A stretch of DNA of 64,000 nt, taken from assembly GCA_047975765.1 (NCBI GenBank), contig JBKEEF010000003.1, positions 3,923 through 67,922 of the forward strand. Direction: 5' to 3'. The notes under the pieces are model-generated. The model saw only the letters and a list, made by a program, of their open reading frames with translations. It was not told the DNA's origin and did no database searches. The stretch is from Alphaproteobacteria bacterium. Its GTDB lineage: Bacteria > Pseudomonadota > Alphaproteobacteria > RF32 > CAG-239. Both the position numbers and the translations under genes were made by a program. This document shows positions 2,268 to 45,950 of this stretch, piece after piece; within the stretch, counting starts at the first letter, position 1; each line of letters opens with the position of its first letter.

Positions 2268-3335
2268 TTGAAAAATTTCGGTAAACTCTGCATTATCCTC
2301 CTAAGCACCATAATTTTTTCCAAATTGGCATTTGCGCAAATGTCCATTTATGATGTTGATGTTTATGTTGATGTGACAGCAGAAAGTGCTGCTTCAGCAA
2401 AAGAAGAAGCGATGACACAAGCAAACAGAACTGCTTTCAATACAGTTGCTCGCAAAATCACGACAAACGAAACTTATGCTCTTCTTGCTGATATGAATGA
2501 TGATCAAATTTTGAACTTCATTAAAGAAGTGACGATTAAGTCTGAAAAATCATCAAACGTTCGCTACATGGCAAACCTTCGTGTGACAATTAATGATGAA
2601 CTTCTCAAACAATATATGGCTGAAAAAAGCATAACCCCTGCAATTGTTAGTGCGTCAAACATTCTCATCATCCCAACTTTCAGAGAATTCAAAACAGACA
2701 CTCCAATGCTTTGGGAAGCAGATAATATATGGAGAAAAGCTTGGGAAGAAGAAAATAACAAGGAAGATGATATTGTCAAATTTTCAAGCATTATCCCAAA
2801 TGGTTCAAACTATGCCAGTTTGGATGTAAAAAAAGCACTTAATTTGAATAAGTCAGCAATGGAACAAGTTTCTTTTAACAATGGAACATCAGATATCTAT
2901 GTTGCTGATGCTGTTTATAATGGAATTGAGGGAATCACTGTTAACATTTTGTCTTACCAAGATGGTAGTACGGAAGTTGTTGAAATTTATGGTGATCGTT
3001 CTCCACAGCTTTTAATCAACGCAATTGCTGAAGTTAAAAAAGCAATTATTAACAAGCTTAAAAATCAAAGTATCATTGAAAATACTCAAAGAAATAAAGT
3101 CACAGCAATTTATGATTATCGCAGTATGTCTGAATGGGTAAAGATTGAAAAATCACTTCGTGAAGTTGGCCGGGTTAATGACATTAAAATTGTGGCAATG
3201 ACAAGTGGTAAAGTTCAATTTGAAATTGATTTCACAGGCTCTTTAGAAAAACTTGAACAAAAACTAAATGCAAGAAATTTTTATCTCATTCCTCAGGGTG
3301 AGGCTTACATCCTAGAAAAAAGAGAACAACAATAG
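2268..3335 (+). CDS. Secreted hypothetical protein (signal peptide, TTG start)
   Basis: 355 aa; N-terminal hydrophobic signal LCIILLSTIIFSKLAFAQ; RBS AGGAGAG upstream of the TTG start; no recognisable domain. Confidence 0.5.
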   Translation: MKNFGKLCIILLSTIIFSKLAFAQMSIYDVDVYVDVTAESAASAKEEAMTQANRTAFNTVARKITTNETYALLADMNDDQILNFIKEVTIKSEKSSNVRYMANLRVTINDELLKQYMAEKSITPAIVSASNILIIPTFREFKTDTPMLWEADNIWRKAWEEENNKEDDIVKFSSIIPNGSNYASLDVKKALNLNKSAMEQVSFNNGTSDIYVADAVYNGIEGITVNILSYQDGSTEVVEIYGDRSPQLLINAIAEVKKAIINKLKNQSIIENTQRNKVTAIYDYRSMSEWVKIEKSLREVGRVNDIKIVAMTSGKVQFEIDFTGSLEKLEQKLNARNFYLIPQGEAYILEKREQQ

Positions 3336-3343
3336 GAAAAAAC

Positions 3344-4399
3344 ATGAAAAAATCCGGAAACAACTGGTTCTTTTGGCTCTCTATCTTTGCTCTCTTTTGC
3401 GTTTTTGTTTACGCAACAAGATCTGTCATCCTTCCTTTTGTTGCCGGAATTCTCATTGGCTACCTGTTTGACCCTTTTGTAGTGAAGCTTTCACGTTTCA
3501 AAATTAATAGAACATTAGCAACCTTTCTTGTTCTTCTCATTATCATTCTGATTTTGGTTCCTTCCTTCATCATTTTGATTAAAATTGCGAATGAACAAAT
3601 TGTGAGATTCATACATAGCCTTCCAAATTTGATTGCTTCTCTCAAAAATAAAATTGAACCTTTATTACAAGATGCCAACAAAAGCTTTCCATTTTTAACG
3701 ACTTCTGAAATTGTTGACTACATCAATAACAACGTCGCAAATTCAGTAAAATTTGCTGGTTCTATTTTGGGAAAAATTGTTAGTGGAAGCTTTGCTTTTG
3801 TAAACGTTGTTTCTCTCCTCATTATTACCCCTGTTGTGGCATTTTATATGCTTCGCGACTGGACACTCTTCACAAAGAAAATCGACGATTTACTCCCTGT
3901 CAAATCTAAAAAAGAGATTCGCTCCATTGCAAGCCAAGTGGACAAAGCTATTGCCGGTTTTATTAGAGGGCAACTCAGTGTATGTGTCATTTTAGGTTTA
4001 TTCTATTCTATGGGGCTTTATTTCATTGGGCTCCAACTTGGTGTTTTAGTTGGATTTATGGCAGGCTTAATCTCTTTCATTCCATACATTGGTTCAATCA
4101 GTGGTTTTGCAACATCAATCATCATTGCTTTGATTCAATTTGATACTTATTCTGAAGTCATTCAAGTTGTTTGCCTTTTCGGTTTAGGCCAAGTTTTAGA
4201 AGGAAGTTTCCTCACTCCAAAGCTCGTTGGAGATTCTGTTGGTCTTCACCCAGTTTGGATTATGTTTGCTTTGCTTGCTGGCGGTGTTTTACTTGGTTTC
4301 CTTGGTATTATGATTGCTGTTCCAATTGCTGCAATTATTGGCGTATTAACCAGACATTTCATCCAAAAATACAAAGAAAGCCAAATTTATAAGGGCTAA
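3344..4399 (+). CDS. AI-2E family (PerM/UPF0118) membrane transporter
   Basis: 351 aa polytopic membrane protein with architecture typical of the AI-2E family. Confidence 0.65.
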   Translation: MKKSGNNWFFWLSIFALFCVFVYATRSVILPFVAGILIGYLFDPFVVKLSRFKINRTLATFLVLLIIILILVPSFIILIKIANEQIVRFIHSLPNLIASLKNKIEPLLQDANKSFPFLTTSEIVDYINNNVANSVKFAGSILGKIVSGSFAFVNVVSLLIITPVVAFYMLRDWTLFTKKIDDLLPVKSKKEIRSIASQVDKAIAGFIRGQLSVCVILGLFYSMGLYFIGLQLGVLVGFMAGLISFIPYIGSISGFATSIIIALIQFDTYSEVIQVVCLFGLGQVLEGSFLTPKLVGDSVGLHPVWIMFALLAGGVLLGFLGIMIAVPIAAIIGVLTRHFIQKYKESQIYKG

Positions 4400-7629: not shown

Positions 7630-8493
7630 ATGTTATTCATAAAAACAAAAGAAAAAAGCGAAAACGACAAAAAGGTGATGCTTCCAAAGCATTGGCCCTT
7701 TCGTCTTATTGGAAATTTATTCCTCATTTCTTTTGTTTTTTGCCTTTCACTCATTACAATCACCATTCGTGAAGAACTTATCTCTAAAAAACTGACTGAT
7801 TTAGAACAAACTTTTTATGAAAAGACAACGAAGTTTGGTTTCACAATTGATGACATCATCATTGAAAACCGTCAAATCACCACGCTCAAAGAAATTGAAA
7901 AAGCTTTAGAGTTAACTCGTCAAAACAACATATTAAGCACACCTCCAAGAGTTATTAAGGAGAAATTAGAAAAACTGCCATGGATTAAAAATGCAATTGT
8001 CAAAAGAAACTATTTTCCAAACGTAATACAAGTCTCCTTGGTGGAAAAAGATGTCGAAGCTATTTGGCAACTAAATAACAAATTTTATCCAATTGATGAA
8101 GACGGAAAAGTCATTGATGCAGAATACATTCCAAATAAACCTGTTTTGTTAATTGTCGGAAAAGGAGCTCCAGACAACTTCAAAAACTTATTCCCAATCA
8201 TCAAAAACAACAATGAAATTTTCAAAAGAATCAAAGTTGCTAACTACATTTCAAATCGACGCTGGAACCTCATTCTAGACAATATTGAACATGGTATAAC
8301 CATAAAACTCCCTGAAGAAAACATTCCTCAAGCTTGGGAAAAGTTGATAAAAATAGACAAATCAGAAGGCATTATTAAGCGTAAATTAACTATCATAGAT
8401 TTAAGATTACCAAATAAAATTATCGTAAAAATCGGTAAAATGACCGATAAAGAAAAAGAAAATATAAAAAACACTAAAGAATCAAAAACTTAA
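7630..8493 (+). CDS. ftsQ: Cell division protein FtsQ (single TM + POTRA-like)
   Basis: 287 aa; N-terminal TM helix; lies between murB and ftsA. Confidence 0.7.
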   Translation: MLFIKTKEKSENDKKVMLPKHWPFRLIGNLFLISFVFCLSLITITIREELISKKLTDLEQTFYEKTTKFGFTIDDIIIENRQITTLKEIEKALELTRQNNILSTPPRVIKEKLEKLPWIKNAIVKRNYFPNVIQVSLVEKDVEAIWQLNNKFYPIDEDGKVIDAEYIPNKPVLLIVGKGAPDNFKNLFPIIKNNNEIFKRIKVANYISNRRWNLILDNIEHGITIKLPEENIPQAWEKLIKIDKSEGIIKRKLTIIDLRLPNKIIVKIGKMTDKEKENIKNTKESKT

Positions 8494-8507
8494 AAGAGGG
8501 AGCAACA

Positions 8508-9761
8508 GTGTCAAATTCTTTTAACCGACTAACTACCATTGCAGCATTAGATATTGGCTCATCAAAAGTGTGCTGTATTATTGCAAAAATCAGTCGTGAT
8601 AAAAAAGTTTCCGTTGTTGGCTATGGTTATAATGCATCAAAGGGAATCAAAAATGGTTGCATTACAGATATTAACCAAGCTACCCTTTCTGTCTGTAATG
8701 CTATTGAAAATGCTGAACAAATGGCAAATGAACGCATTGACCGCATCATTGTCAATATTGCAGGAGATAAAATCAAAAGTGCTATCAAAAGTGCTGTTAT
8801 TCCAATTGGAAAAAATAGACCTATCAATGAATCTGATATTGTTAAAGTTATTGAAAAAGGTAGCAGCAAAATCAATGTTGAAGACAATGAACTCATTCAC
8901 TGCATTCCAACCAGATACTGTGTCAACAATGGTGAAGAAACCAAAGACCCGAGAAACATTTTCAGTGAAACGCTTTCCGTAGATATTTTACTTGGTCTTG
9001 TTCCAGAAATCAATTTCAGAAATATGGCAACTGTCATTGAAAATTCTCATCTAGAAATTGCTGGAAAAGCTTTTTCATCTTATGCTTCATCTCTTTCTTG
9101 CTTAGTTGAAGATGAAAAAGAAATTGGAGCAACCATTATTGATATTGGTGGTGGAACAACAAGTATTGCCACATTCAGAAACGGCTACCCTATTTATTTC
9201 AACTCCATTGCAGTTGGTGGAAATAATATCACCAATGACATTGCTTGGGGTTTGACCACTTCTTTCACACACGCAGAAAGACTTAAAACACTTCACGGCT
9301 GTGCATTTCTAACTTCTCATGACGAAGAAGAAACACTCAATGTTTATCCTGTTGGAGAAGAAGATGACAGCTCTATTCGTCAAATTCCAAAATCTGACCT
9401 TATCAAGATAATCACACCGCGTGTTGAAGAAATCTTTGAATTAATCAATAAAAAGCTAGACGAATTGGGTCTAAAAGATGTATCAAGTCATCGTGTCGTT
9501 TTAACAGGAGGTTCAAGTCAGCTTCCTGGTATTAGAGAAATTGCTTCAATGGTTCTTGATAAACAAGTCAGACTAGGAAAACCAAGAAATAATTTCAGTC
9601 TTCCAGACAATCTTTATAATCCGGCTTTCTCAACTGCTGTCGGATTGATATTATTTGCACTGAATTATACAGAAAAAAAACCAAATAAAGTTATCAGCAA
9701 ATCAACATCAAACACTGGCTTTTTCAGCAGTATCTTTGGTTGGATGAAACAAAACTTTTAG
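8508..9761 (+). CDS. ftsA: Cell division protein FtsA (GTG start)
   Basis: 417 aa actin-like ATPase (ALDIGSSKV, DIGGGTT motifs); RBS AAGAGGG precedes the GTG. Confidence 0.9.
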   Translation: MSNSFNRLTTIAALDIGSSKVCCIIAKISRDKKVSVVGYGYNASKGIKNGCITDINQATLSVCNAIENAEQMANERIDRIIVNIAGDKIKSAIKSAVIPIGKNRPINESDIVKVIEKGSSKINVEDNELIHCIPTRYCVNNGEETKDPRNIFSETLSVDILLGLVPEINFRNMATVIENSHLEIAGKAFSSYASSLSCLVEDEKEIGATIIDIGGGTTSIATFRNGYPIYFNSIAVGGNNITNDIAWGLTTSFTHAERLKTLHGCAFLTSHDEEETLNVYPVGEEDDSSIRQIPKSDLIKIITPRVEEIFELINKKLDELGLKDVSSHRVVLTGGSSQLPGIREIASMVLDKQVRLGKPRNNFSLPDNLYNPAFSTAVGLILFALNYTEKKPNKVISKSTSNTGFFSSIFGWMKQNF

Positions 9762-34895: not shown

Positions 34896-35594
34896 TTATT
34901 GTTTGCTTATGATCATTTTGAGTTTTCCAACAATGTTAAAATCCTCATCAAGAGAGAAACTCCAGCTTTCATATTCTGGGTTTATGGATTTTACCTTCAT
35001 TTCTTTGCCAATTCTTTGAAGTTGCTTAATATAACAATGCTTATCATAGTTAAAAGCATATATCCCATCATCTTCAAACTGGTCAACACTTCTGTCTATG
35101 ATGGCAATGTCGCCATTACTTAGCTTTGGCATCATAGAATCGCCTTTTATATATGCGCCAACGCAATGTGACGATAATTCAAAGGCTTCAACGAGTTCTT
35201 TTGATATGGTTATTGTGAATTGAATGTTTTCTTCATCTGCTAGCCAACCATTTCCGGCCGACAATGAAACGTCGTATATACTTATTTTTTGAGAACCTTT
35301 TCCAACTTTAACATTGTTTTTTATATATTTTTCACCTTTACCATAAACAAGCCAATCAAGATTGATGCCTTTATAATTAAGTAATTTTATTATTACATCT
35401 AATGTAGGGATATATTTTCCATTAAGATAATTTAAAAGAGTATCTTCAGACTTACCAGACACAATGGAAGCCTCTTTCCTATTTGAAAAATCATTATCCA
35501 ACACATCTCTTAGACGAGTTGAAACTTTTTCGTCGTAAGATTCAACTTTTTCTTTTTTTTCCATATCAAAAAACTTCCCTTGTTTTTCAAACAC
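34896..35594 (-). CDS. Phage repressor, HTH + S24 (LexA/cI-like) peptidase domain
   Basis: 232 aa; N-terminal HTH; C-terminal GDSMMP and KQL motifs of the S24 autopeptidase; divergent from ner. Confidence 0.75.
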   Translation of the reverse strand: MFEKQGKFFDMEKKEKVESYDEKVSTRLRDVLDNDFSNRKEASIVSGKSEDTLLNYLNGKYIPTLDVIIKLLNYKGINLDWLVYGKGEKYIKNNVKVGKGSQKISIYDVSLSAGNGWLADEENIQFTITISKELVEAFELSSHCVGAYIKGDSMMPKLSNGDIAIIDRSVDQFEDDGIYAFNYDKHCYIKQLQRIGKEMKVKSINPEYESWSFSLDEDFNIVGKLKMIISKQ

Positions 35595-35755: not shown

Positions 35756-36058
35756 ATGAATAAAAAGGATTTACATCCAGAATATATTAAGTATCTAGTA
35801 AGAAGCCAAGGAATGACCCTTGCGGCTCTTGCTAAAAAATACGGCTTCTCATCCTCTACAATTAAAACAGCTCTTAAAAAGCCAATGTTTTTTGGCGAAC
35901 AAATTATTGCGACGTTCTTGAATATTCATCCCATGAATTTGTGGCCTAGTAGATATGATGAAAAAGGAAACCCTTTACACCCACATGCCTCTGCTAATAA
36001 CCTTAAACCATTTTGCCCAAAAAATCAAGATGTTAAAAAAGGAGGTCAGAATGATTAA
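35756..36058 (+). CDS. ner: Ner-like DNA-binding protein (Mu Ner/Nlp family)
   Basis: DLHPEYIKYLVRSQGMTLAALAKKYGFSSSTIKTALKK...GEQIIATFLNIHPMNLWPSRY matches the Ner family signature. Confidence 0.75.
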   Translation: MNKKDLHPEYIKYLVRSQGMTLAALAKKYGFSSSTIKTALKKPMFFGEQIIATFLNIHPMNLWPSRYDEKGNPLHPHASANNLKPFCPKNQDVKKGGQND

Positions 36059-38141
36059 AAGATTTTATTCAATTCAAGAACTTCTAGAGCTTGGAATACC
36101 TAAGTTTCCAAAAACTCATTTTGGTATAATAAAAAAAGCAGAAAGAGAAAAATGGGTATTTCAAGAACGCAATAAATTGGGTGGCGGCCGAGAATATTCG
36201 TTAGATTCGCTTCCCGTTGAAGCTAAAGAATTTATTTTGAAAACTGAAATGGGAAACTCTCAAGAAGTTATAGAATATCAAAAGCAAGAATTGGCTAATC
36301 ACAGCAACGTTATTGATGTTAATGAACTCAAGCCTTATCAAAGAGAAGTTATTGATGCTAGAGCTATTATTTTAGCTGAAATTGATAGGTTGGCTCTTAT
36401 TTATGGTACGAACAAAGCTATTCAAAAATTTGTTGAACTTGTTTTTCAAGGTGATGTTCCTGAAGAAATAAAAAAAGCACTGGTCAAGGCTAATGCTAAA
36501 TCTGGCGGAAAACCTGTTAAAATTTCACGAGCAACAATTTTTAATTGGAAAAAAGCAATTAAAGAATCAGGAAGCATTGCGGGTCTTGCTCAAAAAGAAA
36601 TTAGAGAAGCAGACTGGCCAGCATGGGGTGATGCTTTGCTTAAATTGTGGCAAGTACCGGGCAAACCAAGCTTATCAACTGTCTTGGAAAATCTCGTTAA
36701 AATACTTCCTGTTTATATTGCTATTCCTAGTTACTCTGCAGCTCAAAGGTTTTTGAAAAAATTGCCGGCACAAGTCTTTAATAAAGGTCGTGTGGGTACT
36801 CGTGAGATGAAAAAATACAAGGCCTATGTTGCAAGAAGCACTGCAAATCTTTGGCCGACGGCAGTTTATACTGCGGATGGTCACACCTTTGATGCTGAGA
36901 TAGAAAACCCATTAACTGGAAAGCTTTTTAGACCAGAAATTACAACGGTTGTTGACGTATATACACGCAAGGTTGTTGGTTGGTCTCTTGATTTGAGTGA
37001 AAGAACAAATTCTGTATATATGGCTCTTACAAAATCAATCATTACTCATGGTATTCCTTGTATTTGGTATGTTGATAACGGAAAGGGTTTTAATAACCGT
37101 TATTTTGATGATGAGATGGTTGGCTTGTTGGCTCGTCTTAAAATTGAGAAAAAGAATTCAATCGCATATAACTCTCAAGCTCGTGGTATTGCTGAACGTA
37201 TCCACCAAACAATTTGGGTCAAAGCAGCAAAAAATTTAGCAACCTATATGGGGGCTGATATGGACACTCAAGCTAAGCAGGCTGTTTATAAAAAAACCAG
37301 AAAAGATATTAGCGAAAAAGGTCGTTCAGACTTGGTTATGAGTTGGGATAATTTTAAGGAATATTGTACAAAATGTGTTGAGATTTATAATAACACACCT
37401 CATAGATCACTGCCAGTGATTGTTGATCAGACTACCTATAAAAAACGTAATATGACACCTTCAGAGTTTTGGAACAAATCTGTTATGGATGGTTTTGAAG
37501 CTGAAAAATTGTCTCCTGCAGAAATCAAAGATCTGTATAGATACTATGAAGTTCGCAGAACAAATCGTGGGTTGGTTCAACTCTTTACAAATAGCTATTT
37601 TTCACTTGCTTTAGAACCTTATCATGGACGTGATGTTGCTGTTGCTTATGATATTCATGATGCTTCTAAAGTTTGGGTTCGTGAGCTTATGGAACTTGAT
37701 GGAGAGATGAAAGCAGGTAGACTTATTTGTGAAGCCATCTTTGAAGGCAACTCAAGAGAATATTTCCCAATTAGTAAGATTGAGTTTGAAAATCAAAAAC
37801 GTGCTGAGGGTCGTGTCAGAAGGCTTAAAGGTCACATGGAAGACGCACTAGATGAAACAAGAGCTAGATTCCTTGATCATCAAATTGATATTGAAGAAAT
37901 TACGACACCTAAAGAAGTTGAAAAACAAGAAAAACCACTTCTTGCAGAAAGCGACGAAAGACCGTTTTTTGCTGATGATGTGTCATGGGCTAAATGGCTT
38001 TTATCACATCCCGATAAAATTACAGATGGAGATGTTGAAAGCTTGATAGCTGCTTTGAAAAGCCCAGAAATGACAATGCTTTTTGAGGCAGAAGACATAA
38101 GCCTTTCTAATTTGAAAGAGCTTATAAAAAAAGCGGTCTAG
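36051..38141 (+). CDS. Mu A-like DDE transposase (start taken at MIKRFYSIQ, overlapping the ner stop)
   Basis: 696 aa; N-terminal winged-helix end-binding region (FYSIQELLELGIPKFPKTHFGIIKKAEREKW) and rve-like core (TADGHTFD...VGW); position after ner. Confidence 0.8.
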   Translation: MIKRFYSIQELLELGIPKFPKTHFGIIKKAEREKWVFQERNKLGGGREYSLDSLPVEAKEFILKTEMGNSQEVIEYQKQELANHSNVIDVNELKPYQREVIDARAIILAEIDRLALIYGTNKAIQKFVELVFQGDVPEEIKKALVKANAKSGGKPVKISRATIFNWKKAIKESGSIAGLAQKEIREADWPAWGDALLKLWQVPGKPSLSTVLENLVKILPVYIAIPSYSAAQRFLKKLPAQVFNKGRVGTREMKKYKAYVARSTANLWPTAVYTADGHTFDAEIENPLTGKLFRPEITTVVDVYTRKVVGWSLDLSERTNSVYMALTKSIITHGIPCIWYVDNGKGFNNRYFDDEMVGLLARLKIEKKNSIAYNSQARGIAERIHQTIWVKAAKNLATYMGADMDTQAKQAVYKKTRKDISEKGRSDLVMSWDNFKEYCTKCVEIYNNTPHRSLPVIVDQTTYKKRNMTPSEFWNKSVMDGFEAEKLSPAEIKDLYRYYEVRRTNRGLVQLFTNSYFSLALEPYHGRDVAVAYDIHDASKVWVRELMELDGEMKAGRLICEAIFEGNSREYFPISKIEFENQKRAEGRVRRLKGHMEDALDETRARFLDHQIDIEEITTPKEVEKQEKPLLAESDERPFFADDVSWAKWLLSHPDKITDGDVESLIAALKSPEMTMLFEAEDISLSNLKELIKKAV

Positions 38142-43532: not shown

Positions 43533-43762
43533 TGTGTTTTATTGAAGTTACATCTTTTAGTGATGAGGGAAGACACCTTATAAAAATTAAAGATATTGTT
43601 TGTGTCTCAGAGAAAGAAATTCATTGTTTACGTAAGGAGGATAGTAAGAATCAAAAAATTTATATTTGTTATATAACTTTATCTTCTGGTGAATTAATAA
43701 AGGTTAATGAAAATTATGGGGTTATAACTCAAAAAATATATGGGGCATTAAAAAATGTCTGA
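43529..43762 (+). CDS. Hypothetical phage protein
   Basis: 77 aa; ATGA overlap. Confidence 0.25.
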   Translation: MMCFIEVTSFSDEGRHLIKIKDIVCVSEKEIHCLRKEDSKNQKIYICYITLSSGELIKVNENYGVITQKIYGALKNV

Positions 43763-43943
43763 AAAACTAAAAATCAAAGATGGTAAAGTTGGAAAAAATG
43801 TCGGCTTTGAAAGGATTAGACGGATTACGGGTTATTTGGTTGGCCGTTTAGACCGTTTTAATAACGCAAAAAGGGCTGAGGTTGAGGACAGAGTTAAACA
43901 TTCTATAAATGAGGAGAAAAGAAGTGAAAAAAGTTTTAAGTGA
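43755..43943 (+). CDS. Hypothetical phage protein
   Basis: 62 aa. Confidence 0.25.
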   Translation: MSEKLKIKDGKVGKNVGFERIRRITGYLVGRLDRFNNAKRAEVEDRVKHSINEEKRSEKSFK

Positions 43944-44109
43944 TTTAATAAGTGTTATTTTGAGTTTGTTATTGTTTTTCATTTCCTTGCTTGGATTTGT
44001 TTTTCTATCTGATACATCTCACTATATGCTAGGCTTTTCTTTCATATTCTTGTTAGGTTGGTTCGGTGGCTGGATTGATAAAACAAGGGATATGAAGCAA
44101 AAGATTTGA
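43909..44109 (+). CDS. Holin-like small membrane protein (two TM helices)
   Basis: 66 aa; two hydrophobic helices and a charged C-terminus; last + strand gene before the endolysin module. Confidence 0.4.
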   Translation: MRRKEVKKVLSDLISVILSLLLFFISLLGFVFLSDTSHYMLGFSFIFLLGWFGGWIDKTRDMKQKI

Positions 44110-44140
44110 TAAAAAAGCCGGTTAATTACCGGCTTTTTCT
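44108..44140. terminator. Bidirectional terminator (AAAAAAGCCGGT-TAAT-ACCGGCTTTTT)
   Basis: Perfect hairpin between convergent genes. Confidence 0.6.
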
Positions 44141-44799
44141 TTATTTAATGCGTCTTGAAAATCTACTAAATTGATAATTTTATCAAAAACAGGACTTAGT
44201 TGATAAATGCCAACATGCTGCTTTTGATTTGGAATTATAAATCCTGTTCTTTGTAGCCCGTAAATTAGAGCATTAAATTCATTTATATCACTATATGTTT
44301 CTCTTGCTTTTACATAATAAGGACTTGGATCTCGCATCTCTTGTTTAGCAAAAGTTTGAAAGCCCCCTATTTTTTCTTTTTCAGAATCTTTTTTTAGCTT
44401 ATAAAGAAGTGCTAAAGTTTGAATTTCTTCATAAGAGAGTGTTTCTAAAATTTGAGCATAACGAGAAAATTGACTTGAATATAATCCTTTTTCAAGCTTC
44501 CCTCCATTTAATAAAGAGTTTATAAGTTTAGCTAGAAGCCTTAAATTTATTTTTGCATTTCCATTAATGGAAGAGAGCATAAACCTATGAATTATTGATA
44601 GTCGTTCATCTGCACCTATACTTGAAAAATCACCTTCTTTTACCTCATCCAACAAGATATCTCTCGCTTTTTCAATTTTTTCTTGTTGGTATGCTTTATA
44701 TATCTCTGACATAGCTCCTGTCGGAATACCAACAAGGGAAAGCGCATCAGCTATTCCTTCTGTTATTGTTTTAGTTAGTGTATTTTCATTATTTGGCAT
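44122..44799 (-). CDS. Opposite-strand cargo ('moron') gene inside the prophage; soluble hypothetical protein
   Basis: 225 aa; only reverse-strand gene in the phage body apart from the repressor; own terminator and AT-rich promoter region; no recognisable domain. Confidence 0.5.
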   Translation of the reverse strand: MPNNENTLTKTITEGIADALSLVGIPTGAMSEIYKAYQQEKIEKARDILLDEVKEGDFSSIGADERLSIIHRFMLSSINGNAKINLRLLAKLINSLLNGGKLEKGLYSSQFSRYAQILETLSYEEIQTLALLYKLKKDSEKEKIGGFQTFAKQEMRDPSPYYVKARETYSDINEFNALIYGLQRTGFIIPNQKQHVGIYQLSPVFDKIINLVDFQDALNKEKAGN

Positions 44800-45011
44800 G
44801 ACTTACTCCTTTTTATGTTTTTTTTATAAATTTACAGTTTTTAACTGAATATGTAAAATAAAAAAATAAGTTGATTTAAAATTATAAATGAAATAATAAT
44901 CAATTATTGTTTATTAATATCAACTCTTTGACTGAACAGGTCATCTTAAAATTTTTGAATAATCTATTTACCCTTATAAACTAATAAAGTCGTTTATAAG
45001 GGTTTTTTGTT

Positions 45012-45539
45012 ATGACAGATAATTTTTTTGAAAAAGCATTTTCGCAAACATTTAAGACTGAGGGTGGTTATGTTAACAACCCGAATGATAGTGGTGGGCC
45101 AACTAAGTATGGGATAACTCTTAAGACTTATCGCCAATATTATCCTTCAGCAACAATCAATACAATAAAAAATTTAACTCCAGAACAAGCCAAAGTCTTT
45201 TATCGTGAATATTTCTGGCTCAAAAATGGCTATGATAAAATAAAAATTGAATGTTTTGCTCTTAAAGTTTTTGATGCTTGCGTCAATATGGGGGAGTTTC
45301 AAGCTCATCTTTGTCTTCAAAGAGCATTGAATTGTGTGGGTTCAAAATTAAAAGAAGATGGTGTTTTGGGAGAAAACACTCTTAAAGTTCTTAATTTTAC
45401 AGGTGATCCAACTTGGAACTTTGCAGTCTTATGTTCATACAAATCTGAACTTGCAGGATTTTATAGAGTTTTAATTGCAAAAAAGCCTAAAAATAAAGAG
45501 TTTGAAACGGGATGGTTGAAAAGGGCTTATCATGGTTGA
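45012..45539 (+). CDS. Endolysin, glycoside hydrolase family 108 N-acetylmuramidase-like
   Basis: EGGYVNNPNDSGGPTKYGIT GH108 signature with a PG-binding-like C-terminal part. Confidence 0.75.
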   Translation: MTDNFFEKAFSQTFKTEGGYVNNPNDSGGPTKYGITLKTYRQYYPSATINTIKNLTPEQAKVFYREYFWLKNGYDKIKIECFALKVFDACVNMGEFQAHLCLQRALNCVGSKLKEDGVLGENTLKVLNFTGDPTWNFAVLCSYKSELAGFYRVLIAKKPKNKEFETGWLKRAYHG

Positions 45540-45738
45540 TGTAGCTGATATTGCGACTGAGCAAATTGAACTCAATAAAGAATTTTCTATAAGAAATTTT
45601 AGAAAAAATCTTATGCATCACAAAAAATCACAAAAATTTTGTTTGGAATGTGGAGAAGAAATTCCCTTAGCTCGTCGTAATGCTGTGGCGGGCTGTGAAT
45701 ATTGTATTGATTGTCAGCTTGAAATTGAAAAGGAGTGA
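45532..45738 (+). CDS. TraR/DksA-family C4 zinc-finger protein
   Basis: CLECGEEIPLARR...CEYCIDCQ C4 arrangement. Confidence 0.6.
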   Translation: MVDVADIATEQIELNKEFSIRNFRKNLMHHKKSQKFCLECGEEIPLARRNAVAGCEYCIDCQLEIEKE

Positions 45739-45950
45739 AAATGACAAAGGCTAATAGAATGTTAGAAGAAAAAATGGGCTATCTAGTAGGTACGATTGAA
45801 GCTATGGATAAGCGATTGCAACGAATGGAAGAAAAACAGGACAAACAGTTGAAAGTTACTGCTGTTAATTCATTTATTTGCTCTTCGGTTGTGGGTGTCG
45901 CAACAACTATAGTTATTGCAAAGCTTAAAAATTCTTTAGGAATGATGTAA
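45735..45950 (+). CDS. Small membrane protein in the lysis module (spanin or lysis-regulator candidate)
   Basis: 71 aa with a C-terminal TM helix. Confidence 0.3.
   Translation: MKMTKANRMLEEKMGYLVGTIEAMDKRLQRMEEKQDKQLKVTAVNSFICSSVVGVATTIVIAKLKNSLGMM

Follow-up and report, generated by a model that had tools for sequence, protein, structure and literature searches.

Morons and prophage defence hot spots are known from several phages, including the morons of HK97 and lambda, the old/tin/fun loci of P2 and the prophage-mediated defence of mycobacteriophages. Here, we analysed a gene of 225 amino acids (aa), referred to as the cargo gene, that lies on the minus strand of a Mu-like prophage in an uncultured alphaproteobacterium and encodes an Abi_alpha-like protein. 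The DNA analysed, called the window, is a 64,000-nucleotide stretch of contig JBKEEF010000003.1 (GenBank assembly GCA_047975765.1), in which the prophage extends from about 34.9 kb onward.

The family Abi_alpha (PF14337/DUF4393) includes the abortive-infection (Abi) protein Abi-alpha, which is EF2833 of prophage 6 in Enterococcus faecalis V583. Abi-alpha stops infection by the podophage Idefix through an abortive response in which lysis is premature; most of its homologues come from prophages and phage-resistance islands (PMC6356687). The Abi_alpha gene of S. aureus phiNM1, gp17 (Pfam E = 8.7e-45), lies on the minus strand among plus-strand genes, and among the prophage proteins of phiNM1 lysogens a DUF4393 protein is reported to be the most abundant (bioRxiv 10.1101/2025.10.23.684294). 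Because gp17 is also encoded on the opposite strand and the DUF4393 protein is abundant in lysogens, the cargo gene has, by analogy, the same architecture as a documented lysogen-expressed Abi_alpha gene. Its best explanation, which we hold with slightly more confidence than doubt, is a separately transcribed moron, probably from a distant branch of Abi_alpha, that would protect the lysogen by abortive infection or exclusion.

Results

The cargo gene occupies a variable slot

A sequence-only reading of the window had described a 225-aa open reading frame (ORF) with a bidirectional hairpin at its 3' end and an AT-rich region at its 5' end, and had found no other minus-strand gene in the phage body apart from the repressor. 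These observations held up. The gene and its upstream elements are as follows.

44122-44799, minus strand: cargo gene, 225 aa, ATG start, encoding a soluble, mostly helical Abi_alpha-like protein of an unnamed family
44806-44811, minus strand: strong Shine-Dalgarno sequence AAGGAG, 6 nt upstream of the ATG, read from the sequence
44812-44925, minus strand: cargo-specific AT-rich 5' region, the presumed promoter site, without counterpart in related phages

The whole 5' intergenic region, from the gene to the endolysin (44800-45011, 212 bp), has a G+C content of 18.9%, compared with 35.8% for the prophage overall. Over the equivalent of about 34.4-54.8 kb, the public record of this phage calls only the cargo gene and the S24 repressor on the minus strand; further downstream, minus-strand ORFs overlap longer plus-strand ORFs. 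The cargo gene also differs from the prophage in composition. Its G+C content is 30.7%, against 36.1% in prophage genes, and at third codon positions (GC3) it is 15.0%, against 26.6 +/- 4.1% (minimum 17.9%), which is below all 30 prophage genes compared.

Five related prophage lineages were found through endolysin homologues of about 60% identity; an IMG/VR search with the endolysin gave no relatives. The common gene order in the five lineages was GemA, Mor, variable small genes, a gene similar to the C-terminus of NrdD, a terminator, a slot, GH108 endolysin, DksA/TraR, a protein of about 72 aa, DUF1804, TerL and portal. The slot was filled differently.

Window, minus strand: 225-aa gene
L039/L040 and L045/L046, minus strand: membrane peptide of 48-49 aa and nothing else
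L037/L038, minus strand: 44-aa and 206-aa genes
L042/L043, minus strand: 304-aa protein with a MuF-like region
L035/L036: pRha-type genes on the plus strand, with a 236-aa MuF-like gene on the minus strand further upstream

The 206-, 236- and 304-aa occupants showed no relation to the 225-aa protein family or to Abi_alpha. Since the slot content differs across the five lineages and the GC3 is atypical, the 225-aa gene is a moron, probably acquired horizontally, and the slot is a variable cargo hot spot at the junction of the early and late operons. This agrees with the opposite-strand moron that had been proposed for the window: relatives with the same backbone carry different slot genes, and comparison with related Mu-like prophages indicated that the gene is not a conserved component of the late operon. 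The proposal that the gene splits a lysis cassette, between a holin-like gene and the endolysin, had to be given up. The synteny places the site at the early/late operon junction, behind a conserved terminator, and the upstream 66-aa ORF taken as holin-like is not conserved.

The gene adjoins the endolysin, and Abi-alpha, the one characterised relative, alters lysis timing. Both facts would fit a lysis-timing or regulatory protein of the phage itself, such as an antiholin-like or holin-modulating protein. However, the gene is in opposite orientation and not part of the late operon, it stands behind a terminator, and it is absent in the five related lineages, all of which keep the module of endolysin, DksA and 72-aa protein. 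Its product has no transmembrane segment (top 19-residue hydropathy 1.08), and most homologues are found in non-phage defence islands. We therefore regard a lysis-timing function as highly improbable.

Several of the other slot genes have features of their own. The small ones (L039 4630-4776, L045 ~3225-3375 and L037 4024-4158, all on the minus strand) encode peptides of 44-49 aa with a C-terminal transmembrane helix behind a strong Shine-Dalgarno sequence, and could be toxin-like or exclusion peptides. The 304-aa protein (L042 2344-3258, minus strand), which has a hydrophobic N-terminal segment, and the 236-aa protein (L035 2808-3518, minus strand) share a MuF-like region, FPSLVGFGWxKVWHGDMVAYAM..., that is distinct from the phage's own head-morphogenesis MuF gene.

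The cargo protein belongs to a sizeable unnamed family

The window protein had no significant match in Pfam, PHROG (E < 0.01), PADLOC or NCBIfam, and PDB sequence searches (a single sequence and two profiles) and tblastn against INPHARED also gave no significant match. We found 37 close homologues of 218-249 aa, all unnamed. A profile search retrieved 882 cluster representatives (50% identity clusters) at E <= 1e-3, and 612 at E <= 1e-10. Among species-representative genomes, the matches were confined to metagenome-assembled genomes of Alphaproteobacteria, at loci with a G+C content of 34-69%. Conserved motifs of the family are NG.AR.NLRLLAK.I, F.RYA.IL..LS.EEI.LL, L.RTG(L/F)I and LVDFQDAL.KE.

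These homologues bear on whether the ORF could be spurious or a decaying, functionless gene. Nothing specific suggests so, apart from the exact cargo-gene sequence being on record solely in the same phage. Against it stand full-length homologues with strongly conserved motifs across this range of G+C content, the strong Shine-Dalgarno sequence and a confident structural model. The family-wide conservation effectively refutes this explanation.

The AlphaFold2 model of the window protein (predicted local distance difference test score, pLDDT, 81.6; predicted template modelling score, pTM, 0.78) contains ten helices and one beta-hairpin. The N-terminal ~40 residues of the family form a hydrophobic helix-GxP-helix rich in small residues; their hydropathy is transmembrane-like in 31 of 129 members, and a fourfold small-xxx-small pattern is present in 45 of the 129. 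A hypervariable central cassette (residues ~135-180) separates the last two conserved blocks. In 48 homologue pairs, residues 30-134 were at least 80% identical while the cassette was at most 35% identical (11-17% in the pairs listed), which suggests exchange or strong diversification of the cassette. Looking at individual alleles, we observed 83-90% identity at residues 30-134, 63-81% at the C-terminus and 11-17% in the cassette, and the cassette sequences fell into a few discrete types, in favour of exchange.

One candidate activity was rejected. The window protein contains the sequence RLSIIH, as might be expected of a HEPN-type Abi RNase, but the Rx4-6H motif is not conserved in the family, where K mostly replaces the R and the H is variable.

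The C-terminal half is winged-helix-like, with a helix LSxEEIxLL, a helix ending in RTGLI and the beta-hairpin. It raises the alternative of a winged-helix DNA-binding regulator on mobile elements, which would control cargo genes, superinfecting phage genomes or element maintenance without abortive infection. Scattered members gave weak matches to winged-helix proteins (DUF4194 in 2 of 129, ORC1, UlaR and SigX), and in several integrative elements the gene lies at the edge of the conserved backbone, as such a regulator might. On the other side, no helix-turn-helix (HTH) family was significant, neither a recurrent operator-like palindrome nor a conserved partner gene was found, and the neighbours differ wholly between contexts. 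In addition, the recognition-helix region is hypervariable among near-identical alleles, which is unusual for a housekeeping regulator. On this evidence a regulator is unlikely, although it is the alternative we take most seriously.

The family shows a remote similarity to Abi_alpha

PF14337 was matched by 4 of 129 family members and was the sole Pfam family with more than two members matching. When these four were re-scanned one by one, all their alignments began at profile position 71. The positive controls for PF14337 passed, with 153.6 bits for phiNM1 gp17 and 60.9 bits for P0184. The sole PHROG match of the window protein was phrog_2232 (E = 0.049), the group matched by 29 of 36 genuine Abi_alpha proteins, down to E = 5e-11.

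We compared the family alignment with an Abi_alpha alignment by hhalign and obtained a score of 32.0 (E = 8e-4) at a probability of only 24%; the hhalign probabilities ranged from 17 to 24%. The controls scored 12.8 +/- 2.1 for column shuffles, 20.3 +/- 4.3 for block shuffles (maximum 31.4) and 15.3 for the reversed alignment, and none of the 300 shuffles equalled the real score. At a relaxed threshold (mact 0.1), the two alignments were collinear over 196 columns, from IADALSLVGIP/IADAIAMFFP through the C-terminal helices. The shared motifs, given as family and Abi_alpha, respectively, are IADALSLVGIP and IADAIAMFFP, LLAK and LWAK, YAxILxxLSxEEIxLL and YAEILSxISxEEAxLL, and RTGLI and KLGII.

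In the AlphaFold2 model of an Abi_alpha protein (pLDDT 77.7), helices, a beta-hairpin and two C-terminal helices follow one another as in the window protein, and an additional beta-rich insertion stands at the position of the window family's variable cassette. Taken together, these weak but convergent similarities make it probable that the window family is homologous to Abi_alpha, as a distant branch. The window protein is not filed as a Pfam Abi_alpha member. The absence of a recognisable domain, as reported from the sequence alone, was correct at standard thresholds; it missed a weak but reproducible similarity to Abi_alpha.

Homologues of the cargo gene lie among defence genes

The closest homologue (50% identity) sits just past the tail and lysis genes of another prophage. 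The other contexts are integrative elements and islands. In these, a homologue is accompanied by an insertion sequence element, a type II restriction-modification system and Mrr; abuts the Gabija genes GajB/GajA, with a DpnII or type IIG restriction-modification system, a KAP NTPase and integrases close by; lies with a type IIG restriction-modification system and an AAA_15 protein; occurs with a methyltransferase/ResIII-helicase pair (type III restriction-modification-like), a genuine Abi_alpha gene and, immediately upstream, a PDC-S18 candidate (PADLOC E = 6e-128); or has GmrSD and Hypoth_Ymh nearby. Defence genes (restriction-modification, Gabija, Abi_alpha, GmrSD, KAP NTPase, PDC-S18) were thus present within a few genes in 5 of the 6 homologue clusters examined, a count over six clusters and not a genome-wide statistic. 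At nine species-representative loci, the neighbours included DNA methylases, ResIII, AAA_13, AAA_21 and Fic, together with housekeeping genes.

Because the homologues lie in defence islands and the family has a remote link to Abi_alpha, a defence role appears likely. The sequence-only reading had suggested such a role from gene architecture.

A conserved partner gene was sought and rejected: the upstream and downstream neighbours vary by context, and the 233-aa neighbour of the closest homologue is unrelated. Since no partner gene is conserved, the cargo gene appears to act alone. In a Gabija sub-clade (L008-L011, L020-L023), the homologue at 8001-8666 is convergent with gajB at 8670-9752, 3 nt apart, and the left flanks differ. 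The arrangement may be a fixed module of three genes, or the genes may simply be inherited together. We rejected a function as a Gabija accessory gene, as the adjacency is limited to this one sub-clade.

On mobile elements, anti-defence genes can be found close to defence genes, and a small, non-enzymatic, helical protein would suit an anti-defence or other phage-benefiting accessory function, such as inhibition of host immunity, that travels with defence islands. However, an opposite-strand gene with its own upstream region in a temperate phage suits lysogenic rather than early lytic expression; moreover, the family is nearly absent from viral collections, and its remote relative is a defence protein. 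We consider this explanation improbable, if marginally less so than a lysis-timing function.

The sequences flanking the cargo gene are phage backbone

The cargo gene is bordered by three elements that recur in the related phages.

44112-44138, both strands: bidirectional intrinsic-terminator hairpin AAAAAGCCGGT-taat-TACCGGCTTTTT, 11 pairs between an A-run and a T-run
44934-44948, plus strand: conserved box GAACAnnTCnnnTTA upstream of the endolysin, invariant when four related phage lineages are aligned
44970-45003, plus strand: perfect hairpin of 12 bp with a T-run after it, 8 nt ahead of the endolysin ATG; backbone, not cargo

The terminator hairpin folds equally on both strands (-16.9 kcal/mol on each; z = -4.9 and -5.6), a stability that 0 of 200 shuffles reached. 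It was the strongest terminator-like site of the 8-kb region scanned, and the stop codon and last codons of the cargo gene fall within it. Rfam gave sub-threshold matches only, all due to this hairpin. The position of the terminator is kept in L037, L039 and L040, with a changed stem sequence; this conserved position makes it a feature of the phage backbone, which closes the early/middle operon and is used by the cargo gene as well.

The box GAACAnnTCnnnTTA is a probable late-promoter or activator site of the backbone, not of the cargo. The hairpin at 44970-45003 is kept in the relatives, and in 5 of its 12 pairs both sides have changed (compensatory stem changes). Box and hairpin (44934-45003) may together form a late-promoter or activator site plus an attenuator or a hairpin that sequesters the ribosome-binding site and controls lysis-gene expression. 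We also observed that the only Shine-Dalgarno-like sequence upstream of the endolysin, AAGGG, lies inside this hairpin.

Because the terminator, the box and the pre-endolysin hairpin are conserved in relatives, the cargo can be delimited to about 44139-44925, that is, the gene and ~125 bp of its own upstream DNA, with the early-operon terminator of the phage borrowed; the last ~80 bp before the endolysin are conserved phage backbone. The gene had been credited with a terminator and a promoter of its own. The hairpin is strong, but it is not private to the gene, the last ~80 bp of the supposed promoter region belong to the backbone, and promoter-like hexamers do not exceed chance. The gene's own promoter is presumed to lie in 44812-44925.

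Neighbouring genes of the prophage

Further genes of the prophage are listed below.

34896-35594, minus strand: S24/HTH repressor
35955-38141: MuA
43755-43943, plus strand: NrdD C-terminal-like (glycyl-radical segment) gene, 62 aa (PF13597, E = 1.9e-7; phrog_487), the conserved left flank of the slot
43909-44109, plus strand: hydrophobic 66-aa ORF, hydropathy up to 2.85
45012-45539, plus strand: GH108 endolysin with a PG_binding_3 domain (Pfam E = 5e-25 and 1.7e-8; phrog_315), first gene of the late operon and right flank of the slot

Also recognised were genes for a MuB-like AAA protein, DUF3164, GemA and Mor. The endolysin gene is followed in the window by genes for a DksA/TraR zinc-finger protein and DUF1804, and the downstream genes include Portal_Mu, Mu_F and Gp36. 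The closest cultured relatives by TerL are Haemophilus phage SuMu and the D3112/DMS3-like phages of Pseudomonas, with 47-48% identity.

The 62-aa NrdD-like protein corresponds to no more than the C-terminal tip of NrdD, the class III ribonucleotide reductase, with its RxxGY glycyl-radical motif, and might be a 'spare-part' glycyl-radical protein. Its gene has homologues at the same position in relatives (L037 3806-4012, L039 4210-4587, L042 1527-1736) and is the conserved last gene ahead of the early-operon terminator in these Mu-like prophages.

The 66-aa ORF, previously described as holin-like, does contain a strongly hydrophobic stretch, but it is uncalled in the public record of the same phage and has no counterpart in related phages. 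It overlaps the end of the NrdD-like gene, and there is an alternative GTG start at 43924 after AGGAG. The ORF could be spurious, or a second insertion specific to the window. A 71-aa protein encoded at 45735-45950 (plus strand), conserved after DksA/TraR in all relatives, starts with a coiled-coil-like region and carries a transmembrane helix at its C-terminus. As a holin/spanin-type partner of the endolysin, it is a stronger candidate than the upstream 66-aa ORF.

Discussion

Several results weigh against an Abi_alpha-type defence moron. On the side of homology, the window protein had no match to PF14337 at E <= 1, and the best family members reached 18.2, 14.7, 13.0 and 12.8 bits, under the cut-off of 29 bits. 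The hhalign probability is low. Foldseek searches of the AlphaFold2 model against PDB gave non-specific helical matches alone (E >= 0.57). In BFVD, the window-family model had one match, the unnamed A0A516M1T5 (probability 0.99), and the Abi_alpha model matched A0A291AUV8, so that the two had no neighbour in common. On the side of function, the mechanism of Abi-alpha itself is unexplained (PMC6356687), and the family has no Pfam, NCBIfam or PADLOC model. The family is nearly absent from the viral collections IMG/VR and INPHARED. In some integrative elements, the homologue lies at the border between variable cargo and conserved backbone, a position from which it could be an element-maintenance gene. 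As to expression, two candidate pairs of promoter hexamers (44923-44896, TTGATA-16-GATTAT; 44857-44829, TTTACA-17-TAAATT) can be picked out in the 5' region, where sigma-70-like hexamers occur at chance level (33 found, against 29.2 +/- 4.8 expected from shuffled sequence). Finally, the N-terminus of the window protein is weakly hydrophobic (1.08), which makes a membrane-active effector speculative.

If the cargo gene is nevertheless a defence gene related to Abi-alpha, its action can be pictured as follows. The gene would be transcribed in the lysogen from its AT-rich upstream region, with transcription ending at the shared hairpin. In the protein, the conserved scaffold would carry a winged-helix-like C-terminal half, and the cassette (residues ~135-180) would sense a phage-specific trigger from the infecting phage. 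Recognition of the trigger would release the effector activity of the conserved N-terminal part, that is, the hydrophobic helix-GxP-helix and the helices after it. This effector would perturb the membrane or the lysis clock and so abort the infection, which would match the premature lysis caused by Abi-alpha. A broader version of this proposal is possible but rather doubtful: an undescribed single-gene immunity family, mainly of Alphaproteobacteria, in which a swappable cassette in a winged-helix-like scaffold sets the specificity and an N-terminal glycine-zipper-like hairpin is the membrane effector, the design being common to Abi-alpha and explaining its premature lysis.

The cargo gene is of an already known kind, a prophage hot-spot moron, here with a divergent Abi_alpha-like protein, and is a plausible, fairly ordinary phage-defence candidate. 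Its main interest lies in a sizeable unannotated family with an exchangeable variable cassette. Should the defence role be true, this family would join the catalogue of anti-phage genes, and Abi-alpha-type immunity would reach from prophages of Firmicutes to Alphaproteobacteria and Mu-like phages. The early/late junction hot spot in gut-associated Mu-like prophages could then be mined for more defence genes, and the allele series, with its fixed scaffold and swapped cassette, would offer a handle for mapping what Abi-alpha-like proteins sense. If it is not confirmed, the gene is another hypothetical moron.

Like known morons, the cargo gene is an additional gene where two operons meet; close relatives lack it or carry something else in its place, and its base composition is atypical. 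It likewise has a terminator on one side and an AT-rich upstream region on the other, and its opposite orientation would permit expression in the lysogen. Unlike them, it shares its terminator with the early operon of the phage instead of having brought one, and its promoter is presumed. AbiZ of Lactococcus, a premature-lysis Abi protein that speeds the lysis clock, offers a possible functional analogy, limited to phenotype and predicted on the side of the window; Abi-alpha and AbiZ share no sequence similarity (PMC6356687). Abi-alpha, like the cargo gene, is a single small gene of prophages and defence islands without an enzymatic motif. The window protein is shorter, at about 225 aa compared with 270-300 aa, and its family has a hypervariable cassette in place of the beta-rich insertion. 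Whereas Abi-alpha was characterised in siphophages of Firmicutes, the cargo gene belongs to Alphaproteobacteria and a Mu-like phage.

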